From: Escherichia coli
Lineage (GTDB): Bacteria > Pseudomonadota > Gammaproteobacteria > Enterobacterales > Enterobacteriaceae
Length of the DNA: 64,000 nt
NCBI RefSeq assembly: GCF_013122565.1
Contig: NZ_CP053258.1
Reading direction: 5' to 3' (one strand)
Part shown: positions 377 to 58,274 of the stretch, one piece after another
How the letters are laid out: each line of letters opens with the position of its first letter
Position numbering within the stretch: the first letter of the stretch is position 1
The notes under the pieces: generated by a model
The model's input: the letters and a program-made list of their open reading frames with translations, nothing else
What the model was told of the DNA's origin: nothing
Databases searched by the model: none
Program-made: the position numbers and the translations under genes

Positions 377-615
377 TGTAAAGCATCCACAATAGAAGAA
401 GGATGCCGCAGGTTTCATCAATATTACGCGATGATGAGAACCAGATGCGACGTTGGCCGGCAGGTCTTCGGGCTTGGAGGGGTATCTAAGATACTAAGAG
501 ATGATGACTTCCCACCGAATGGCAGTGTCCGCATAACGCAATCATCGCACCTTTCCTTACCGCTGCGCGTCAGCTCCAGATTCGCACTGGATTCCCTATT
601 AACTCACAGGACCGG
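377..615 (-). promoter_or_regulatory. btuB 5' leader carrying the cobalamin (B12) riboswitch
   Basis: A roughly 240-nt leader lies between the btuB ATG and the divergent trmA gene; the reverse-strand sequence agrees with the K-12 btuB leader as I recall it. Boundaries are approximate. Confidence 0.7.
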
Positions 616-744
616 CAAGTGGATGCTACAGGTTGTAACAAGTTACTGTCCAGACATAGCTCACAAATAGGAATTCATCAAGATCTGGACATCTGATGAG
701 CAATCCCTACAATCGCCGCGTACTTTAATTTTTCAGGATACATC

Positions 745-3216: not shown

Positions 3217-4617
3217 ATGCCACATTCCTACGATTACGATGCCATAGTAATAGGTTCCGGCCCCGGCGGCGAAGGCGCTGCAATGGGCCTGGTTAAGCAA
3301 GGTGCGCGCGTCGCAGTTATCGAGCGTTATCAAAATGTTGGCGGCGGTTGCACCCACTGGGGCACCATCCCGTCGAAAGCTCTCCGTCACGCCGTCAGCC
3401 GCATTATAGAATTCAATCAAAACCCACTATACAGCGACCATTCCCGACTGCTCCGCTCTTCTTTTGCCGATATCCTTAACCATGCCGATAACGTGATTAA
3501 TCAACAAACGCGCATGCGTCAGGGATTTTACGAACGTAATCACTGTGAAATATTGCAGGGGAACGCTCGCTTTGTTGACGAGCATACGTTGGCGCTGGAT
3601 TGCCCGGACGGCAGCGTTGAAACACTAACCGCTGAAAAATTTGTTATTGCCTGCGGCTCTCGTCCATATCATCCAACAGATGTTGATTTCACCCATCCAC
3701 GCATTTACGACAGCGACTCAATTCTCAGCATGCACCACGAACCGCGCCATGTACTTATCTATGGTGCTGGAGTGATCGGCTGTGAATATGCGTCGATCTT
3801 CCGCGGTATGGATGTAAAAGTGGATCTGATCAACACCCGCGATCGCCTGCTGGCATTTCTCGATCAAGAGATGTCAGATTCTCTCTCCTATCACTTCTGG
3901 AACAGTGGCGTAGTGATTCGTCACAACGAAGAGTACGAGAAGATCGAAGGCTGTGACGACGGTGTGATCATGCATCTGAAGTCGGGTAAAAAACTGAAAG
4001 CTGACTGCCTGCTCTATGCCAACGGTCGCACCGGTAATACTGATTCGCTGGCGTTACAGAACATTGGGCTGGAAACTGACAGTCGCGGACAGCTGAAGGT
4101 CAACAGCATGTATCAGACCGCACAGCCGCACGTTTACGCGGTGGGCGACGTGATTGGTTATCCGAGCCTGGCATCAGCGGCCTATGACCAGGGGCGCATT
4201 GCCGCGCAGGCGCTGGTGAAAGGTGAAGCCACCGCACATCTGATTGAAGATATCCCTACCGGCATTTACACCATCCCGGAAATCAGCTCTGTGGGCAAAA
4301 CCGAACAGCAGCTGACCGCGATGAAAGTGCCATATGAAGTGGGCCGCGCCCAGTTCAAACATCTGGCACGTGCACAAATCGTCGGCATGAACGTGGGCAC
4401 GCTGAAAATTTTGTTCCATCGGGAAACAAAAGAGATTCTGGGCATTCACTGCTTTGGCGAGCGCGCTGCCGAAATTATTCATATCGGTCAGGCGATTATG
4501 GAACAGAAAGGTGGCGGCAACACTATTGAGTACTTCGTCAACACCACCTTTAACTACCCGACGATGGCGGAAGCCTATCGGGTAGCTGCGTTAAACGGTT
4601 TAAACCGCCTGTTTTAA
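3217..4617 (+). CDS. sthA: Soluble pyridine nucleotide transhydrogenase
   Basis: 466-aa ORF with FAD-binding GSGPGG motif ([16 protein letters not shown]) and the expected length. Confidence 0.95.
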
Positions 4618-5517
4618 CACTTTATCGAAATGGCCATCCATTCTTGCGCGGATGGCCTCTGCCAGCTGCTCATAGCGGCTGCGCAGCGGTGAGCCAGGAC
4701 GATAAACCAGGCCAATAGTGCGGCGTGGTTCCGGCTTAATGCACGGCAGATAAACAACCCCATCGCGTTTGCGTTCCGGCGGCACAGCCAGCGCTGGCAA
4801 TAAAGTGATCCCGCTACCTGCCGCCACCATGTTGCGCAGCGTCTCCAGGCTGGTCGCGCGGAAGTGTGTATCTTCATCCGCCCCGGCTTCAAAACAGAAA
4901 CCCATTGCCTGATCGCGCAAACAGTGACCATCTTCCAGCATCAGCAGTTTTTCCCCTGCCAGATCGGCCATCGGTACGCATTCGCGGTTCGCCCACGGGT
5001 GATCTTCATAGATAGCCAGCAACATTGGCTCATCAAACAACGGCACTTCAATGAATGCTTCGCTCTCTTTCACCAGCGCGAGGATCACGCAATCGAGTTT
5101 GCCGCTGTCCAGTTGCGCCAGTAACTGGTGGGTCTGTGCTTCATGCAGATACATTTCCAGCTTTGGAAAGGTCTGGTGCAGCATCGGGATAATATGCGGT
5201 AGCAGGTACGGTCCAACCGTGGGAATCAAACCAATATGCAGCGGTCCGGACATCGTCTCGCCCTGCTGGCTTGCCATCTCTTTAAGGACTTTCACCTCAC
5301 GCAGCACGGTACGCGCCTGATCCACCAGCAGCATTCCCGCCTGGGTGAACAACACTTTACGGCTGGTCCGCTCCAGCAACATCACGCCCAGCTCATCTTC
5401 CAGCTTACGAATTTGCCCGCTAAGCGTCGGCTGGCTAACGTGGCAGGAATCTGCTGCACGCCGAAAATGGCGGTGTTCAGCCAATGCCACCAGGTACTCA
5501 AGATCACGAATATTCAT
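4600..5517 (-). CDS. oxyR: LysR-family hydrogen-peroxide-responsive regulator OxyR
   Basis: Canonical 305-aa protein starting [40 protein letters not shown]; the ORF-track entry has a 10-aa N-terminal extension. The 3' end overlaps sthA convergently. Confidence 0.95.
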
Positions 5518-5612
5518 TATCCATCCTCCATCGCCACGATAGTTCATGGCGATAGGTAGAATAGCAATGAACGATTATCCCTATCAAGCATTCTGACTGA
5601 TAATTGCTCACA
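5518..5612. promoter_or_regulatory. Divergent oxyR/oxyS promoter region, expected to carry the OxyR binding site
   Basis: Intergenic region between the oxyR start and the oxyS 5' end; the site itself was not mapped base by base. Confidence 0.5.
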
Positions 5613-5729
5613 GAAACGGAGCGGCACCTCTTTTAACCCTTGAAGTCACTGCCCGTTTCGAGAGTTTCTCAACTCGAATAACTAAAGCCAACGTGAACTT
5701 TTGCGGATCTCCAGGATCCGCTTTTTTTT
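5613..5729 (+). ncRNA. oxyS: OxyS small regulatory RNA with intrinsic terminator
   Basis: Sequence gaaacggagcggcacctcttttaacccttgaagtcactgcccgtttcgagagtttctcaactcgaataactaaagccaacgtgaacttttgcggatctccaggatccgc followed by a T-run, agreeing with K-12 oxyS as I recall it; divergent from oxyR. Confidence 0.9.
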
Positions 5730-5770
5730 TTATTCTACAGGCCCACAACAAGAGAGCCTGATAGTAACGG

Positions 5771-7054
5771 TTACTCAATGCGATCTTTGACAATAAAGAA
5801 GTAACACAACGCCCCGGTGAACGTCACACAGGCCGCGATAACCAACGCCAGATTAAACGAGTGTGTGGTATCCACTACCCAACCGGTTACGATCGGAGCA
5901 AAGGAAGCAAAAACAAAACTGCCAAAGTTTTGAATCCCGGCGATGGAAGCCACTTTTGTTTCTGACACCATCACCTGCACCAGTCCCCATGCAGACGTTC
6001 CCGCGAAATGCACGCAGAATAGCGCCATTGAGATAAACGCTACCGCCTGAGCTGGCGAGGAAGATTGCACGACCAGCAACGTGCCTAATGCCGACATCAT
6101 CAAACCGCAGACAATAGCCGTTTTACGCGTCTTCGCCAGGTCGTAGCCTTTTTTCGCCAGTCGATCGACAACAATACCGTTTACCCACATCCCGACTGCC
6201 GCCGCGAGGAAAGGAATCGCCGCCACCCAACCGGTTTTCGCCAGACTGAAACCTTGCTCGGCCTGCAAATAACCGGGTAACCACGCGATGTAGAGCCAAC
6301 CGGTATAATTGACGCCAGAGAAACCTAAAATCATCCCCCAGGTTGTCCGATGCTTAAACAGCGCCAGCCACTCGCTAAATTGCAGCTGTGGACGCGGTTT
6401 AACCGGCGCGGAGAGATACGTCCGTTCTTCGTCAGTCAGGACAAACTGCGCCCGGTTGCGATACCACGCGTACCAACAGATCCCAACCAGAATCCCCGCC
6501 ACGCCGATGATGACGAACATCGTCCGCCAGCCCCATGCCAGCTGCATCAATACAAGAGCAGGAGGCGCGATAGCCTGACCGATAACGGTAGATGAGTTAA
6601 AAATCCCCAGCGCCGTGCCGCGTTCTTTTTGTGCATACCAGTCGGTGATCGACTTTACTCCCGCAGGCATAAATGGCGCTTCGCCAATACCCAGACCGAT
6701 ACGCATTAAAATAAAGTGGCTAAAAGAATTAACCATTCCTGTTAATGCCTGCATTAATGACCAGAATATTAAGCCTGCGCCTAAAACTATTCGTGGGCCA
6801 AAGCGGTCTAGCAAAATACCGGAAGGAAGTTGTGAAAAACCATAAGACAGAGAAAATGCAGAAAGCAAAAAACCAAACTCTGTCGCTGATAATCCTAACT
6901 CGCCACGAATCGCTTCGCCTGCCACGCTCAATGACGAACGGTCGAGAAAATTAACGATCCCCGCCATAAATAATAAAACCAGGGTCACTGTCTGAATACG
7001 ACGAATCCGTTGCGGTTTATTACCCGCAACACTGGTTGACACATCAACGTCCAT
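5771..7054 (-). CDS. MFS transporter, anion:cation symporter (ACS) family, sugar-acid type (DgoT/ExuT-like); accessory
   Basis: 427-aa hydrophobic ORF with multiple predicted TM segments and an N-terminal signature (LLFMAGIVNFLDRSSLSVAGEAIRGELGLSATEFGFLLSAFSLSYGFSQLPSGILLDRFGPR) typical of ACS-family sugar-acid transporters. Not part of the K-12 oxyR-argH interval as I recall it. Confidence 0.8.
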   Translation of the reverse strand: MDVDVSTSVAGNKPQRIRRIQTVTLVLLFMAGIVNFLDRSSLSVAGEAIRGELGLSATEFGFLLSAFSLSYGFSQLPSGILLDRFGPRIVLGAGLIFWSLMQALTGMVNSFSHFILMRIGLGIGEAPFMPAGVKSITDWYAQKERGTALGIFNSSTVIGQAIAPPALVLMQLAWGWRTMFVIIGVAGILVGICWYAWYRNRAQFVLTDEERTYLSAPVKPRPQLQFSEWLALFKHRTTWGMILGFSGVNYTGWLYIAWLPGYLQAEQGFSLAKTGWVAAIPFLAAAVGMWVNGIVVDRLAKKGYDLAKTRKTAIVCGLMMSALGTLLVVQSSSPAQAVAFISMALFCVHFAGTSAWGLVQVMVSETKVASIAGIQNFGSFVFASFAPIVTGWVVDTTHSFNLALVIAACVTFTGALCYFFIVKDRIE

Positions 7055-7120
7055 TTTTAGCTCCTTGAGCGGAATTAATCGATTTGATGACTATTCAGAA
7101 AATAATTAAGCGAACCGTTA

Positions 7121-8335
7121 TTACCAGTTCCACAATGTGCCATCTTCCAGTCGTGCGACGGGGAGATACGCCGGGTCATACGGATATTTCGCCGCCAGTT
7201 TCTCATCGAAAGAAATACCCAGCCCCGGTTCATCGCCTGGGTGCATATAACCTTCATCGAAGCGCCAGCTGTGCGGGAAGACTTCAAGCATTTGTTCGGA
7301 ATAGCCCATGTACTCCTGAACGCCAAAGTTTGGCACCCAGAGGTCAAAATGCAGCGCCGCCGCATGACAAACAGGCGATAAATCTGAAGGGCCATGCGAA
7401 CCGGTACGTACCTGATAAAGCGATGCAAAATCGGCAATCCGTCGCATCCCGGTAATGCCGCCTGCATGGGTAATCGTCGTGCGAATATAGTCAATCAGCT
7501 GCTCTTCGATTAACTGCTTGCAGTCCCAGATACTGTTAAACACTTCACCGACCGCAATCGGCGTCACGGTGTGCTGGCGAATCAGACGGAAACATTCCTG
7601 GTTCTCGGCAGGCGTAGGATCTTCCATCCAGAACAGGCGGTAATCCTCAATGCTCTTCCCAAAGCGCGCCGCTTCGATGGGGGTCAGGCGATGGTGCATG
7701 TCATGCAACAGATGTTCGTTAAAACCGAACTTATTACGCACCGCTTCAAATAACTTCGGCGTAAAATCGAGATACTTTTCTGAAGACCACAACTGCTCTT
7801 CTGGCCACAGGCCTTTGGTTGCCGGTTCATACGCCAGTCCTTTGCCCTTCGCCAGGCCATAAGTGGTTTGCATACCCGGTACACCACACTGCACACGAAT
7901 CGCCTTAAAGCCCATGTGCTGGTGCTTTGCATAGTCTTCAAGGACTTCATCAATCGTACGCCCGGTGGTGTGGCAATAAACCATCACGCCTTCACGAGAA
8001 GCACCACCAAGCAGTTGATACAATGGCATATTTGCCGCTTTAGCTTTGATATCCCACAACGCCATATCAATGGCAGAAATGGCTGACATCGTGACGGGGC
8101 CACGTCGCCAGTAAGCACCTTTATAAAAGAATTGCCAGATATCTTCGATACGGCTGGCATCGCGGCCAATTAGTTGTGGACAAAGATGATCTTTCAGATA
8201 AGAAGCGACCGACAATTCGCGACCATTTAACGTGGCATCTCCTAATCCACAAAGTCCGCTTTCAGTGGTTATTTTAAGCGTAACGAAATTACGCCCTGGG
8301 CAAGTAACAAAAACATCCGCAGCAATAATTTTCAT
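7121..8335 (-). CDS. Enolase-superfamily sugar-acid dehydratase, D-mannonate dehydratase (ManD)/RspA-like; accessory
   Basis: The ORF-track entry is 424 aa; the likely start is [43 protein letters not shown], preceded by an AGGAG Shine-Dalgarno, and this N-terminus closely resembles E. coli RspA and ManD-family enzymes. Confidence 0.8.
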
Positions 8336-8739
8336 TATTGCAATCTCCTGTGTTGTAAATAGACGTTTCAAACTTAATTTTACGCCTACTACCATACAAG
8401 AGAGAAAAAGCGATTATTCAACCGTGATCACATTAAAAACAAAAATTTCCATCGAGGAGAAAAAATACCCTCAAAAACCACCTGAATAATTAACCATTAT
8501 CGTTAAAACAACACGTTAAATAATCACATAACAAACTCCATTAATCATTAAAAATGGGCACAGCAATAGAAAATAATTATATTCAATTAATTAAAACATG
8601 CATTGGTTGATGTATTGAAAATATGATTTTTATGGGGGGGAGTGAAGGTAAAGAAGACACAATAATAAAAAGGAATATGACAAATAATGGTTCTGGTTGG
8701 ACGTTAAATTTAAGGTCACCAGAATGATGACAAATTTCT

Positions 8740-8797
8740 GCCTGATGCGGCGTAAACGCCTTATCCGCCTACGAAGTGTCGCACTTTGTAGGCGTGG
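8740..8797. repeat. REP (repetitive extragenic palindromic) element downstream of argH
   Basis: gcctgatgcggcgtaaacgccttatccgcctac followed by an inverted partner; typical E. coli REP consensus. Confidence 0.7.
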
Positions 8798-8833
8798 TAA
8801 ACTCCCCATTTTCAGGGGAGCAATATAAACAAA

Positions 8834-10207
8834 TTACTCTAACCGAGCCTGCGCAAAAGCAATTGCCTGCGCCACCTGCTGCGGTGAGACGCCGCCTTTT
8901 GCCGCACGCTTGTCGAGGCACGATTGTAGCGACAGAATCGGATAGACATCTTCGCCAATCACCTGACTGAATTTCTGCAACTCACTGAGTGGCAGATCTT
9001 CCAGCGGTTTGCCCTGACGAATGGCTTCCACCACCGCTTCACCCACAATATGGTGCGCCTCGCGGAAAGGTACGCCTTTCGCCACCAGGTAATCCGCCAG
9101 TTCGGTGGCGTTGGCGTAACCCTGCTGAGCCGCTTCCTGGCAACGTGGACGTTTCACCTGAATGCCGTCCAGCACCAGCGCCGCCATATGCAGGCAGTCC
9201 AGCCAAGTATCGAGCGCGTCGAACAGACCTTCTTTGTCTTCCTGCATATCTTTGTTGTAAGCCAGCGGCAAACCTTTCAGCGTCATCATCATGCCAGTTA
9301 ACGCGCCCTGCACCCGACCACATTTACCGCGAATCAGCTCCAGCGCATCCGGGTTTTTCTTCTGCGGCATTAATGATGAACCGGAAGTCACGCGGTCAGA
9401 AAGCTCCACAAACCCCGCTTCGCCGGTGTTAAAGAAAATCAGATCTTCAGCAAAACGCGACAGATGCACCATGCCGATAGCGGCAGCAGAAAGCAGTTCC
9501 AGCACGTGGTCACGGTCAGAAACGCTGTCGAGACTGTTACGGGTCGCTGAAGCAAAACCCAGCCAGCCAGCTAACTGTTCACGGTCGATTTCATAAGCCG
9601 TTCCCGCCAGCGCGCCACAGCCTAACGGACTGACATCCAGACGCTTAAGCGCATCCTGCAAACGGCTTTCATCACGCGCCAGCATCTCAACATAGGCCAG
9701 GCACCAGTGCGCGAACGTCACCGGCTGGGCGCGTTGCAGGTGAGTGTAACCTGGCATGACCGCGTCCTGATTGTTTTGTGCGGTTTCCACCAGCGCCGAT
9801 TGCAGCTGCCGGTTAGCCGTCAGCAACTCGCCAACGGTATCTTTGCACCACAGTTTCAGGTCTGTCGCTACCTGATCATTACGACTACGCCCGGTATGCA
9901 GCTTTTTGCCTAACTGGCCCACTTTGTCGATCAGTTTGCCTTCCACCCAGCTATGAATATCTTCGGCGTCGCTTTCGAGGATTTGTTGTGGCCTGGCGCG
10001 AACATCTTCCAGCAGCACGTTCAGCGCCTCTTCCAGTTGCGCCTGCTCTTCTGCGGTTAACACGCCGACCGTTACCAGGGCTTTGGACCAGGCCACAGAG
10101 CCAACAATATCCTGCTCCGCCAGACGGTAATCAAAGCGCAGTGAGTCGTTGAATTGTTTGAACCGTTGATCTGCTGCCTGGGTAAAACGCCCGCCCCAAA
10201 GTGCCAT
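8834..10207 (-). CDS. argH: Argininosuccinate lyase
   Basis: 457-aa [44 protein letters not shown]..., fumarate-lyase family. Confidence 0.95.
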
Positions 10208-13362: not shown

Positions 13363-13475
13363 ACGTAGGCCGGATAAGGCGCTCGCGCCGCATCCGGCAC
13401 TGTTGCCAAACGCCAGCGCTGCAATAATGTCGGATGCGATGCTTGCGCATCTTATCCGACCTACGCCTTTGGTGT
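13363..13475. repeat. REP/BIME element cluster between argE and ppc
   Basis: aggccggataaggcgctcgcgccgcatccggcac ... gtcggatgcgatgcttgcgcatcttatccgacctacgcc; paired REP palindromes. Confidence 0.7.
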
Positions 13476-33239: not shown

Positions 33240-34133
<894 letters not shown>

Positions 34134-34186
34134 TTACCTCATCAATCGCTTGTTGTTATATGTTGTGTTGTGCACATCTATCCATT

Positions 34187-34210
34187 TAGACGTCCAGATG
34201 TAAAGATGAA
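34187..34210. promoter_or_regulatory. Tandem MetJ boxes in the metF promoter
   Basis: agacgtcc-agatgtaa-agatgaag: three consecutive 8-bp repeats matching the met-box consensus AGACGTCT, upstream of metF. Confidence 0.55.
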
Positions 34211-34542
34211 GGAAAAGCCGAAGGGCGTCAACCGAAAAATGACCACTGATGGTGAGGAAATATCAGGGAAGTTGAAATTTTTTCATCTGAAGAAAAAAAC
34301 AGGGATACCAATGTTCAGTATGAGGTGAATATTGGGAAAATGCTGACGTTATTAATTTTATATTTATTTAAATGATGATTCATTCTGATTTATTTACTTA
34401 AAAAATGAATTATATTTTCAAATAAAACAAAAAGATACTTTAAGCCTCTCCGGCCTCCTCGCTTTTAATTTTGAACCACTTCAAACAAATAATAAATTCC
34501 TAAGAATTAAGTTGCAGACAAATTATACATCCCTCACGATAA

Positions 34543-34580
34543 GTAGAACGTTCTAGTAGAACGTTCTACTTATATAAATA
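34543..34580 (+). promoter_or_regulatory. Tandem perfect 12-bp palindromes (TAGAACGTTCTA x2) overlapping a -10-like TATAAAT; putative LacI-type operator and promoter for the EIICB operon
   Basis: gtagaacgttctag-tagaacgttctac at about 34543..34569, 55 to 80 bp upstream of the EIICB start, followed by tatataaat. The palindrome has the central CG and AACGTT core typical of LacI/GalR-family operators. Confidence 0.55.
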
Positions 34581-34623
34581 ATCGTTCTTGCGCAGTCATC
34601 TGCGCTATTCGGGGGAAATCAGC

Positions 34624-36123
34624 ATGGGTCTGATATCGAGTGTCGTAAAATCACTTTCTAAACTGTCGATGATTGGTCGCGCGCTGATGCTGCCAATTTC
34701 GCTTCTGCCTGCCGCCGGGTTGTTGCTGGCGTTCGGCGATAAATTCCACATGCCGTTGATGATGAATGCCGGCGGTATCATTTTTGATAACTTGCCGATG
34801 CTTTTTGCTATCGGTTCTGCCGTGGGACTGGCTTCAGAATCGGGTATTGCGGCGCTATCCGCAGCTGTATCCGTCTTTGTCACTAATATCACCATCGGTA
34901 CTGTCCTTGGCATCACACCAGAGATGGCCGGGCAAGGCGGTAAATATGCGATGGTGGTGGGGATCCCAACGCTGCAAATGGGCGTCTTCGGCGGCCTGAT
35001 ATGCGGGGTTCTGGCGGCGTGGTGTTACAACCGTTTTCATACCATGCAATTACCAGAATTCCTTGGCTTTTTCTCCGGCAAACGCTTCGTGGCTATCGCG
35101 ACGGCTTTTCTTTCCTTCATCCTTGGCTTGTTACTGCCCTATGTCTGGCAACATATTCAGTCGGGAATCGATGCCCTATCAGTTATCGTCAATGGTGATA
35201 ACCAGGCGGCATCGACCTTTATTTTTGGTGTGACAGAACGTGCGCTCATTCCGCTTGGCCTGCACCACATCTGGTATCCATCGTTCTGGTACTCTTTTGG
35301 TGATTACACCACCCAGGCAGGCCAAATGATCCACGGTGACCAAACAATTTGGTTCAAAATGCTGGAAGAAGGTGTGAAATCGTTCAGTAGCGACAGCTAC
35401 CATAACGCGGGTAAGTTTTTACAGGGCGAGTTCCCGCTCATGCTGTTCGCGCTGCCTGCGGCGTGTCTGGCGATGTACCATGAAGCACACACCAAAAATA
35501 AGAAAATTGCCGCCGGTATTCTGTTCTCTGCCGCATTAACCTGTTTCCTGACAGGTATTACAGAACCCGTTGAATTTACCTTTATTTTCGTGGCACCGGT
35601 ACTGTACGTATTCAACGCGATAATGGCTGGCCTCTCCTATATGGCGATGTATCTGCTCCATGCCCATATTGCAAAATCCTTCTCGGCAGGGCTTATCGAT
35701 TATATTTCGTTTGGCATCCTGCCATCATTTAACGGCTACGAAACCAACTTCCTGAGTGCCATTATTGTTGGCGTACCGATGGCGATTATCTATTACTTCA
35801 CTTTCCGCTTTGTTATTCGCCGTTTTGATGTGAAAACACCGGGTCGAGCCGAAAGCACCGTATCCGCTAACGATAAAACCGATGATGAACTGGCTACGGA
35901 AATTATCAGTCTGCTGGGCGGCCAACAAAATATCTCTTCCGTCGCATCCTGCATAACACGCCTGCGTCTGGAAGTGGCAGATAAGGATGTAGTTGATAAA
36001 GATGGACTGAACAATGTCGGTGCTCGTGGTGTGGTTTTTGTCGGCGATAACGGCATTCAGGTGATTTTTGGCGCACGTGCACAATTTATCGCGCAAACCA
36101 TGTCGACGATGATTGGCAAATAG
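34624..36123 (+). CDS. PTS glucose-family EIICB component, sugar specificity unknown; accessory
   Basis: About 499 aa from MGLISSVVKSLSKLSMIGRALMLPISLLPAAGLLLAFGD, preceded by a GGGGGA Shine-Dalgarno. A PtsG/MalX-like EIIC domain is followed by a C-terminal EIIB domain with the phosphorylatable Cys motif SCITRLRLEV. The ORF-track start at 34588 is probably too far upstream. No EIIA gene is adjacent. Confidence 0.85.
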   Translation: MGLISSVVKSLSKLSMIGRALMLPISLLPAAGLLLAFGDKFHMPLMMNAGGIIFDNLPMLFAIGSAVGLASESGIAALSAAVSVFVTNITIGTVLGITPEMAGQGGKYAMVVGIPTLQMGVFGGLICGVLAAWCYNRFHTMQLPEFLGFFSGKRFVAIATAFLSFILGLLLPYVWQHIQSGIDALSVIVNGDNQAASTFIFGVTERALIPLGLHHIWYPSFWYSFGDYTTQAGQMIHGDQTIWFKMLEEGVKSFSSDSYHNAGKFLQGEFPLMLFALPAACLAMYHEAHTKNKKIAAGILFSAALTCFLTGITEPVEFTFIFVAPVLYVFNAIMAGLSYMAMYLLHAHIAKSFSAGLIDYISFGILPSFNGYETNFLSAIIVGVPMAIIYYFTFRFVIRRFDVKTPGRAESTVSANDKTDDELATEIISLLGGQQNISSVASCITRLRLEVADKDVVDKDGLNNVGARGVVFVGDNGIQVIFGARAQFIAQTMSTMIGK

Positions 36124-57054: not shown

Positions 57055-57540
57055 ATGAAATACGATACTTCCGAGCTTTGTGACATCTATCAAGAAGATG
57101 TTAACGTCGTGGAACCGCTGTTCTCCAACTTTGGCGGACGGGCGTCGTTTGGCGGACAAATAATCACGGTAAAATGTTTCGAGGACAACGGGTTGCTGTA
57201 CGATCTGCTCGAACAGAATGGCCGTGGTCGTGTTCTTGTCGTCGATGGCGGTGGTTCTGTTCGTCGCGCACTGGTCGATGCTGAACTGGCGAGTCTGGCA
57301 GTACAAAATGAATGGGAAGGTCTGGTCATTTACGGCGCGGTGCGTCAGGTAGATGACCTGGAAGAGCTGGATATCGGCATCCAGGCGATGGCGGCAATTC
57401 CGGTTGGTGCCGCTGGCGAAGGCATTGGCGAAAGCGATGTCCGCGTCAATTTTGGCGGTGTTACCTTCTTCTCCGGCGACCATCTTTATGCCGACAATAC
57501 CGGGATTATTCTTTCAGAAGATCCGCTGGATATTGAATAA
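57055..57540 (+). CDS. rraA: Ribonuclease E inhibitor RraA
   Basis: 161-aa [70 protein letters not shown]... Confidence 0.95.
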
Positions 57541-57556
57541 GTATCTGCCATGCGTT

Positions 57557-57583
57557 AAAAGGGGAATTAAATTCCCCTTTTTT
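57557..57583 (+). terminator. Intrinsic terminator after rraA
   Basis: aaaaggggaat-taa-attccccttttttat: perfect stem followed by a T-run. Confidence 0.65.
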
Positions 57584-57587
57584 ATAC

Positions 57588-58274
57588 ATGGACGTATTCA
57601 TGCAGAATATTATTCTTTTATTTATATATTTATCACTTATAGTCGTTAACCATTTCCGCTACAAATTTCTTTTATCTGGCAACGCGGGTGAAATGATTTT
57701 ATATTTTGCTAACGTATTTTTTAACCCACTTGCCGTATCATTTATTATCGCCACAATCATCTGTATAACGATAAAAAAAAGAAGCAGCCGTAGCTTTATT
57801 CGCGGCACTTGTTGGTTAATGGGATTATTTCTTATCTATAGCAGCTATACGGTGTGGGAACGACACAGCACATGGGATTATACTTTCCCGGGGCCAGGTA
57901 TCACCGTCACGGTTCCGAGCAAACAGTGGGTTACCAATATAGTAGAACAAGGCCCCACCCTGGTGACTCGGGATGCCCATGCTATTTTAGCTATTGTTGC
58001 CTTCTCACAAAATGAACTCGGTGTGCATTCAATCGAGGAGCTTACCGCGACTCAAAACGGAACTGCAGAAATGCATATTTGTGATGTTCAGGGATTTACC
58101 TGTGTTTATCAGGAAGAACTGCAAACAATGAGTGATGGTAAAACAAGACATGCTATTTTCATGACTCTACTGGATAACACTAATTTGATACAACTGGTCG
58201 CAGCCATCGACCAAGATTATTTGGACGAATATCAAGAAGAAGTAATGAAAATGATGCTTTCTGCCCGTCAATGA
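57588..58274 (+). CDS. Hypothetical membrane-anchored protein, paralog 1 (three predicted N-terminal TM segments plus a roughly 140-aa probably periplasmic domain); accessory
   Basis: AT-rich ORF of 224 to 228 aa; the start is either ATG 57588 (MDVFMQNI) or ATG 57600 (MQNIILLF). N-terminal hydrophobic segments with K/R-rich loops are followed by a soluble domain with a conserved Cys pair (C-x7-C, HICDVQGFTCVYQ). No recognisable family. Confidence 0.6.
   Translation: MDVFMQNIILLFIYLSLIVVNHFRYKFLLSGNAGEMILYFANVFFNPLAVSFIIATIICITIKKRSSRSFIRGTCWLMGLFLIYSSYTVWERHSTWDYTFPGPGITVTVPSKQWVTNIVEQGPTLVTRDAHAILAIVAFSQNELGVHSIEELTATQNGTAEMHICDVQGFTCVYQEELQTMSDGKTRHAIFMTLLDNTNLIQLVAAIDQDYLDEYQEEVMKMMLSARQ

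Follow-up and report, generated by a model that had tools for sequence, protein, structure and literature searches.

The dehydratase gene manD of the Escherichia coli chromosome analysed here is preceded by about 400 bp of AT-rich DNA, located at positions 8336–8739 of the window (the whole stretch of 64,000 nucleotides under analysis). In RefSeq, manD and the adjacent MFS transporter gene are annotated, and no feature is recorded within the AT-rich gap. This raises the question of what the DNA in front of manD does: whether it encodes a small protein or a small RNA, whether it is a promoter silenced by H-NS, or whether it holds a specific regulatory site for the downstream genes.

Genomic setting of the AT-rich region

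The limits of the islet that contains the region were set by comparison with the K-12 chromosome. The surrounding features are as follows.

4600–5547, minus strand: oxyR
5613–5722, plus strand: OxyS (Rfam, 139.5 bits)
5730–8833, minus strand: accessory islet of 3.1 kb, comprising manD, the MFS transporter gene and the upstream region (K-12 comparison)
8834–10207, minus strand: argH, with argB, argC and argE next in order

Homology to K-12 ends at 5729 and restarts at 8834. In K-12, 54 bp separate the argH stop from the OxyS terminator; 5730–8833 has taken their place and is thus a replacement rather than a simple insertion. Both OxyS and a cobalamin riboswitch (442–631, minus strand, 87 bits), presumably upstream of btuB, were found at the expected places, which confirms a K-12-like backbone. 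The first 24 kb of the window show 98.3% identity to the best-matching complete E. coli genome. No literature on the argH–oxyS manD–MFS islet was found.

The upstream region of the islet is present in 1868 of 5426 complete E. coli genomes (approximately 34%). Every carrier genome, without exception, has one copy of the AT-rich stretch, which is chromosomal and lies beside manD, and a distant blastn search within E. coli likewise showed a single copy per genome and no paralogues. Absence of the islet from K-12 and its presence in about one-third of the species support the horizontal acquisition suggested in the initial annotation of this DNA.

The argH–oxyS spacer is a variable spot, with 54 bp in K-12, 3.1 kb in the window and about 9 kb more in approximately 134 of the 5426 genomes. 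In this second islet class (e.g. locus L004, NZ_CP116136.1, 4708800–4730000), the extra DNA is located between argH and the manD upstream region and carries genes for an araD-like epimerase, a DeoR-family regulator, a sugar ABC transporter, an L-ribulose-5-phosphate 3-epimerase and an FGGY kinase. At locus L089 (NZ_CP173554.1, strain 98203) the upstream region is intact and manD is annotated as a truncated pseudogene; decay of the islet is thus under way in some lineages at least.

The GC content of 8336–8739 is 30.2% compared with 52.4% for the whole window, which corresponds to 69.8% AT over 404 bp. Only 0.05% of all 404-bp segments are as low in GC, and the minimum of the 64 kb falls within this stretch. 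Its limits are exactly the manD start codon on one side and a REP element (8740–8793) on the other. It contains 13 A/T tracts of at least 4 nt and several short inverted repeats, the best palindrome being that at 8725–8691. These data bear out the earlier description of the stretch as AT-rich, non-coding DNA upstream of the dehydratase gene with A/T tracts and short inverted repeats. Further stretches of very low GC content in the window, again for 404-bp segments, are 34040–34729 (minimum 0.31) and 57437–57890 (minimum 0.35).

The downstream genes

Two genes on the minus strand follow the AT-rich region.

7121–8335, minus strand: manD, D-mannonate dehydratase of the enolase superfamily, rspA paralogue (NCBIfam, RefSeq)
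5771–7054, minus strand: MFS transporter gene, D-galactonate transporter type (TIGR00893, E = 5.5e-82)

The manD product reaches 732 bits with the NCBIfam ManD equivalog model (cut-off 550) and is 91.8% identical to RspA of K-12; the closest solved structure is also an RspA (4IL2). In the ORF list manD extends to an ATG at 8395. The ATG at 8335–8333 (minus strand) is the real start, because it is preceded by AGGAG (8349–8345), gives a canonical terminus and agrees with the RefSeq annotation. The two genes are separated by 66 bp, in which neither a second operator core nor a promoter-like site was found; for this reason manD and the MFS transporter gene are probably co-transcribed. Orthologues of the transporter (84–89% identity) occur within the rsp clusters of Enterobacter, Pluralibacter, Raoultella and Lelliottia. 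The two islet classes differ by only approximately 4% at the third codon positions of manD and the MFS gene.

Coding potential of the AT-rich region

All ORFs of at least 15 codons were checked against 11 other alleles, and four were searched in Pfam. The ORF of 85 amino acids at 8232–8489 on the plus strand, already regarded as spurious in the initial annotation, overlaps the manD start in antisense orientation and is without a match in Pfam. The two ORFs that are the largest within the gap, of 34 amino acids at 8623–8727 (plus strand) and of 59 amino acids at 8630–8809 (minus strand), are intact in the window allele only and broken in 11 of 11 others. Both allele-specific ORFs owe their existence to a C7 run at approximately 8636–8642, which is peculiar to the window allele; the others read CACTCCCC or CTCTCCCC at this place. 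The other ORFs have 16–43 codons and mostly GTG or TTG starts.

That a small protein is encoded in the gap is hardly credible on these data. There are ORFs of 16–59 codons to choose from, and one of 43 codons with a TTG start (8697–8828, plus strand) is intact in the nine standard alleles compared. However, the two largest exist by virtue of the C7 run, no Pfam threshold was reached, and the others lack an ATG or a ribosome binding site, overlap the REP element and are broken in the variant class. No plausible ORF is conserved, as had been assumed from the letters alone.

The proximal 100 bp and the rspA promoter

The regulation of rspA, the paralogue of manD, has been studied experimentally in K-12. 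YdfH, a regulator of the GntR family that was renamed RspR, gave a single genomic SELEX peak in K-12 (Shimada et al., PMC8249747). Its DNase I footprint at rspA covers 31 bp and is centred on the palindrome ATACnnGTAT; the transcriptional start of rspA was mapped 30 nt upstream of the ATG, and mutation of rspR derepressed rspAB (PMC8249747). With the start mapped there, TTGTAT becomes the −35 and TAGATT the −10 hexamer of K-12 rspA, and the footprint includes TATACTTGTATGGTAGTAG. A second study assigned CRP as activator and YdfH as repressor of rspA, both with high-evidence sites (Ireland et al., PMC7567609); of the two halves of the CRP site, the upstream TGTGA is perfect and the downstream one poor (PMC7567609). 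Both sites were also seen in a recent preprint, together with an unidentified repressor near −100 (bioRxiv 10.1101/2025.05.13.653802).

Judged by alignment, the proximal approximately 100 bp in front of manD (8336–8435) is a homologue of this promoter. The following elements were assigned.

8336–8365, minus strand: predicted 5′ leader of about 30 nt, with AGGAG (8349–8345) as ribosome binding site
8371–8376, minus strand: predicted −10 hexamer TAAGTT, aligning with TAGATT of K-12 rspA
8389–8400, minus strand: operator core CTTGTATGGTAG, the counterpart of the right half of the region that RspR protects at rspA
8414–8435, minus strand: CRP-like site TAATGTGATCACGGTTGAATAA, with TGTGA at 8432–8428 and its centre at about −60

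The TGTGA of the CRP half-site TGTGATCAC begins 33 nt upstream of TTGTAT, and the downstream half of the CRP site has two of the five consensus bases. Both TGTGATCAC and CTTGTATGGTAGTAG are identical in K-12 rspA and equally spaced. The core matches at 12 of 12 positions (8400–8389) and is overlapped by the −35 hexamer TTGTAT (8399–8394). It is part of the stretch CTTGTATGGTAGTAGG at 8400–8385, 33 nt past TGTGA, and is the single match to CTTGTATGGTAG in the 64 kb even with one mismatch allowed. TTGTAT and TAAGTT are spaced by 17 bp, followed by about 30 nt to the ATG. The predicted manD start site was placed by alignment to K-12 rspA and its mapped start. Across 30 alleles the leader hardly varies. 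A scan with the sigma-70 consensus yielded only two plus-strand sites, which is not above chance; it misses the rspA-type module because the −35 hexamer is weak.

At the position of the RspR box, the window reads TCTCTTGTAT: the right arm GTAT is intact, and the left arm is TCTC instead of ATAC (one of four bases). Among the 30 alleles compared, out of roughly 1,870 islet alleles, TCTC is fixed in 30 of 30, so that none of them carries the published palindrome ATACnnGTAT, and a GntR-type dimer may bind such a site weakly or not at all. The 12-bp core is invariant in the same 30 alleles, although it doubles as the −35 region and its conservation by itself is no proof of RspR binding.

For a quantitative comparison, an operator weight matrix was built from the 78 other rsp loci. 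With 11.6 bits, the window site ranks first of approximately 128,000 positions (runner-up −4.3 bits, background mean −69 bits). This score is lower than that of every rspA-type site (minimum 17.1, median 46) and lies within the range of sites lacking the ATAC arm, 1.5–25 bits. The unrecognised regulatory site for the cassette that had been considered possible earlier would be this unannotated rspA-type module, with its CRP half-site and RspR-protected core.

Predicted RspR sites in rsp clusters of other bacteria

When each bacterial species, represented by one genome, was scanned with the ManD protein, 80 loci were obtained, ranging from Escherichia to Budvicia; nearly all of them are rsp clusters with rspA, rspB, ydfI, rspR and ydfG. 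In the rsp loci an invariant ACTTGTATGGTAGT is found approximately 55–85 nt before the ATG, with TGTGATC farther upstream. The core without its leading C, TTGTATGGTAG, was found 90 times, in 78 of the 80 Enterobacterales rsp loci, and 80 of these 90 related sites have a TGTGA that starts 33 or 34 nt in front of TTGTAT; in the window the distance is 33 nt.

Sites of this kind are not confined to rspA. Six loci, representing at least four genera, have GTATGGTAG-type sites some 35 nt in front of rspR (L009, L026, L030, L032, L035, L040). Furthermore, the arm-less core (T/C)CTTGTATGGTAGT is conserved amid diverged flanks in front of the MFS orthologue (three genera), ydfI (four loci) and other transporter genes.

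GTATGGTAG-type sites at the MFS gene: L005, L015, L070
GTATGGTAG-type sites at ydfI: L026, L027, L069, L073

The sites near rspR, ydfI and transporter genes suggest an autoregulation and an RspR regulon that would extend beyond the single K-12 target. Because they are conserved amid diverged flanks at MFS, ydfI and transporter promoters, the sites lacking the ATAC arm appear to be genuine, and the window site can be regarded as a putative member of this arm-less class rather than as a ruined site.

These comparisons also bear on a competing view, according to which the RspR core in front of manD is a decayed relic that has lost its ATAC arm and has left the promoter under the control of CRP alone or constitutive. 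The TCTC left arm in all alleles and a matrix score under that of all rspA-type sites would fit such a decay, as would the loss of the GATC-containing flank of rspA-type promoters. However, the 12-bp core does not vary in 30 alleles, and the arm-less form recurs at MFS and ydfI genes of several genera with its surroundings diverged. We consider a relic rather unlikely, and prefer an RspR site of the arm-less type. The regulator itself would be at hand: rspR is present in 5417 of the 5426 E. coli genomes, and RspR is therefore available in trans.

Block A and the distal 300 bp

Comparison of the consensus sequences of the two islet classes divided the region into segments of very different conservation. 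Identity is 95–100% for 8336–8459, which includes the rspA-type module, falls to 50–65% for 8460–8499, returns to 95% for 8500–8539 (block A) and is 40–65% for 8540–8700. The constraint on block A is deduced from two lineages, and a short gene-conversion patch would look alike.

8453–8473, minus strand: small hairpin GAGGG / TCCTC, located in the variable spacer (alifold consensus; weak)
8500–8539, minus strand: block A, 40 bp, reading GGAGTTTGTTATGTGATTATTTAACGTGTTGTTTTAACGA
8540–8689, minus strand: distal AT-rich filler, 40–65% identity between classes and 92–97% within the standard class

Within block A there are two TTTAACG direct repeats 13 bp apart and a second perfect TGTGA (8528–8524), located 96 bp upstream of the proximal one. 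When it was compared by eye with consensus sequences for CRP, DeoR, KdgR, UxuR/ExuR, ArcA, Fis, IHF, ArgR and the LacI family, only the CRP half-site fitted. Neither a promoter nor an Rfam match was found in block A, and a metagenome scan for diverged versions returned 20 contigs, each of which falls into one of the two E. coli islet classes. Block A probably binds a further factor or a second CRP dimer.

Two other descriptions of block A were discarded. As a 96-bp tandem duplicate of the proximal unit, it gave a local alignment no better than shuffles (p = 0.34). A long-range inverted repeat formed with 8426–8410 scored 17; the best repeat of shuffled sequences averages 24.

On its downstream side, block A is immediately followed by a short hypervariable patch (8480–8499), GAT[A/G][A/G]T[G/A][G/A][T/C]TAAT, with seven polymorphic columns among standard alleles. 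In two alleles this interval reads ATGGTAGT, which is RspR-core-like, probably by chance. In the small hairpin at 8453–8473, a G.U pair is replaced by A-U in the variant islet class. The distal filler (8540–8689) showed no conserved ORF, Rfam match or conserved fold.

The initial annotation had also raised the possibility of a small RNA. Rfam searches at permissive thresholds with 20 kb, 551 bp and 201 bp of sequence gave only a sub-threshold REP-like naRNA4 hit at the distal edge, and no promoter–terminator pair for a small RNA was found in the stretch. A small RNA or a long structured leader could, for example, start from the perfect TATAAT at 8581–8576 and run through block A. Indeed, the 245-nt sense RNA 8580–8336 folds better than shuffled sequences (z = −2.9) with an alifold consensus of −45 kcal/mol, and TATAAT or TATGAT is kept in both islet classes. 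Such a transcript would have to do without a usable −35 or extended −10 element, an intrinsic terminator and an Rfam family, though. Its long-range helix consists of invariant bases and therefore shows no covariation, shuffled sequences on average score higher than the inverted repeat on which the helix is built, and the distal 200 bp yield no consensus fold. An RNA of this kind is improbable, and the suggestion was not sustained.

AT content and H-NS

H-NS prefers AT-rich DNA with A/T tracts. On the basis of its composition alone, the AT-rich part may plausibly be bound by H-NS. A xenogeneic promoter whose 70% AT tract nucleates an H-NS filament, so that manD–MFS is silenced with or without a specific regulator, would fit the most AT-rich spot of the 64 kb (69.8% over 404 bp), its many A/T tracts and its horizontal acquisition. 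On the other hand, the high-affinity motif of Lang, TCGATAAATT, occurs twice with at most two mismatches, compared with 1.3 ± 1.1 in shuffles of the same composition, and AT-richness alone leaves the near-perfect conservation of the rspA-type module and of block A unexplained. As the principal explanation, H-NS silencing is conceivable but, in our judgement, somewhat doubtful; it is compatible with the RspR/CRP model and the two are not mutually exclusive.

REP debris and the argH terminator

The distal edge of the region contains repeat elements, which were assigned as follows.

8691–8725, no strand: palindrome TTCTGGTGAC...GTCCAACCAGAA, the best inverted repeat, reached by 1.6% of dinucleotide shuffles
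8740–8793, no strand: REP element with the canonical sequence GCCTGATGCGGCGTAAACGCCTTATCCGCCTAC and a hairpin at 8766–8794
8797–8821, minus strand: hairpin GCTCCCCTGAAAATGGGGAG followed by TTTAC, read from the sequence

Some alleles have a 13-nt deletion in the REP element. The sequence 8770–8690 aligns to the full-length two-hairpin naRNA4/REP325 model with 30.8 bits (gathering threshold 59.5), and the palindrome 8725–8691 is probably a decayed second REP hairpin. The hairpin at 8821–8797 is a probable argH terminator, replacing the different hairpin of K-12. Another REP cluster, between argE and the next gene (13368–13461), is stronger than 8690–8770 and reaches 59.2 bits with naRNA4 (REP325-like; gathering threshold 59.5).

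A model for the control of manD

We infer the manD start site as well as the binding of RspR, CRP and H-NS from sequence. The explanation that we favour, and hold to be rather probable, is that the stretch is the non-coding control region of an acquired manD–MFS operon with an rspA-type CRP/RspR promoter. On its own this promoter would be weak, and it would depend on cAMP–CRP because its −35 hexamer, TTGTAT, is weak; cAMP–CRP bound near −60 would activate it. RspR, supplied in trans from the core genome, would bind over the −35 region and block RNA polymerase. A sugar-acid ligand would release RspR, so that manD–MFS would be induced when glucose is absent. Block A would add a further factor or a second CRP dimer, and H-NS would coat the AT-rich upstream DNA.

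Going further, RspR might have a second, unlinked target in the manD–MFS islet of about one-third of E. coli, with block A binding an additional factor, either a second CRP dimer phased by 96 bp or a new sugar-acid regulator. This extension is tentative, and we regard it as possible rather than likely. If it is true, a borrowed promoter has been given an additional layer of strain-specific control, the description of RspR as a single-target regulator applies only to K-12-like strains, and an acquired islet has joined a resident regulon by bringing the cognate promoter with it. For an unannotated accessory operon, the analysis provides a concrete regulatory model, with predicted CRP activation and RspR repression in trans, and in block A a short, well-defined candidate for a new cis-element.

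Comparison with known systems

The promoter is of a known type and otherwise ordinary, accompanied by REP debris; it is no new kind of element and leaves general views as they are. The novelty is modest and consists of the assignment of an unannotated promoter to the RspR/CRP type and of the conserved 40-bp block A.

At the distal edge, the closest relative is REP325/naRNA4. The full two-hairpin model aligns and hairpin 1 is a canonical REP, whereas the window has a single unit instead of a six-unit array, its second hairpin is AT-enriched and imperfect, and the score is half the gathering threshold. With acquired promoters bound by H-NS, the region shares composition, acquisition history and A/T tracts, but it shows no motif enrichment beyond composition.

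Of the known systems, the rspAB promoter of K-12 comes nearest. It has the same TGTGATCAC and CTTGTATGGTAGTAG with the same spacing, the same TTGTAT −35 hexamer and −10 type and a leader of about 30 nt, and the gene downstream is a 92%-identical ManD/RspA paralogue. The two promoters differ in the left arm of the operator (ATAC in rspA, TCTC in the window) and in the conserved TTTTTGATCATTAT flank, which has been replaced in the window. The spacer between −35 and −10 is 18 bp in K-12 and 17 bp here; upstream, K-12 has the terminator of the preceding gene where the window has 300 bp of AT-rich DNA with block A. Moreover, the regulator gene is unlinked in the window, and the operon partner is the MFS transporter gene instead of rspB.

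A further resemblance is to the arm-less promoters in rsp clusters of Enterobacter, Pluralibacter, Raoultella, Lelliottia and Klebsiella (L005, L015, L070, L027, L055, L069, L071, L073), themselves candidates from sequence. Common to them and the window promoter are the core (T/C)CTTGTATGGTAGT with no ATAC arm, a left flank rich in pyrimidines and the range of operator scores, and TGTGATC often lies 33 nt upstream. These promoters are found within a complete rsp cluster beside rspR, whereas the window promoter belongs to an isolated two-gene islet at another chromosomal position. By its predicted operator, the manD promoter is best filed with this arm-less group of rsp-cluster promoters.
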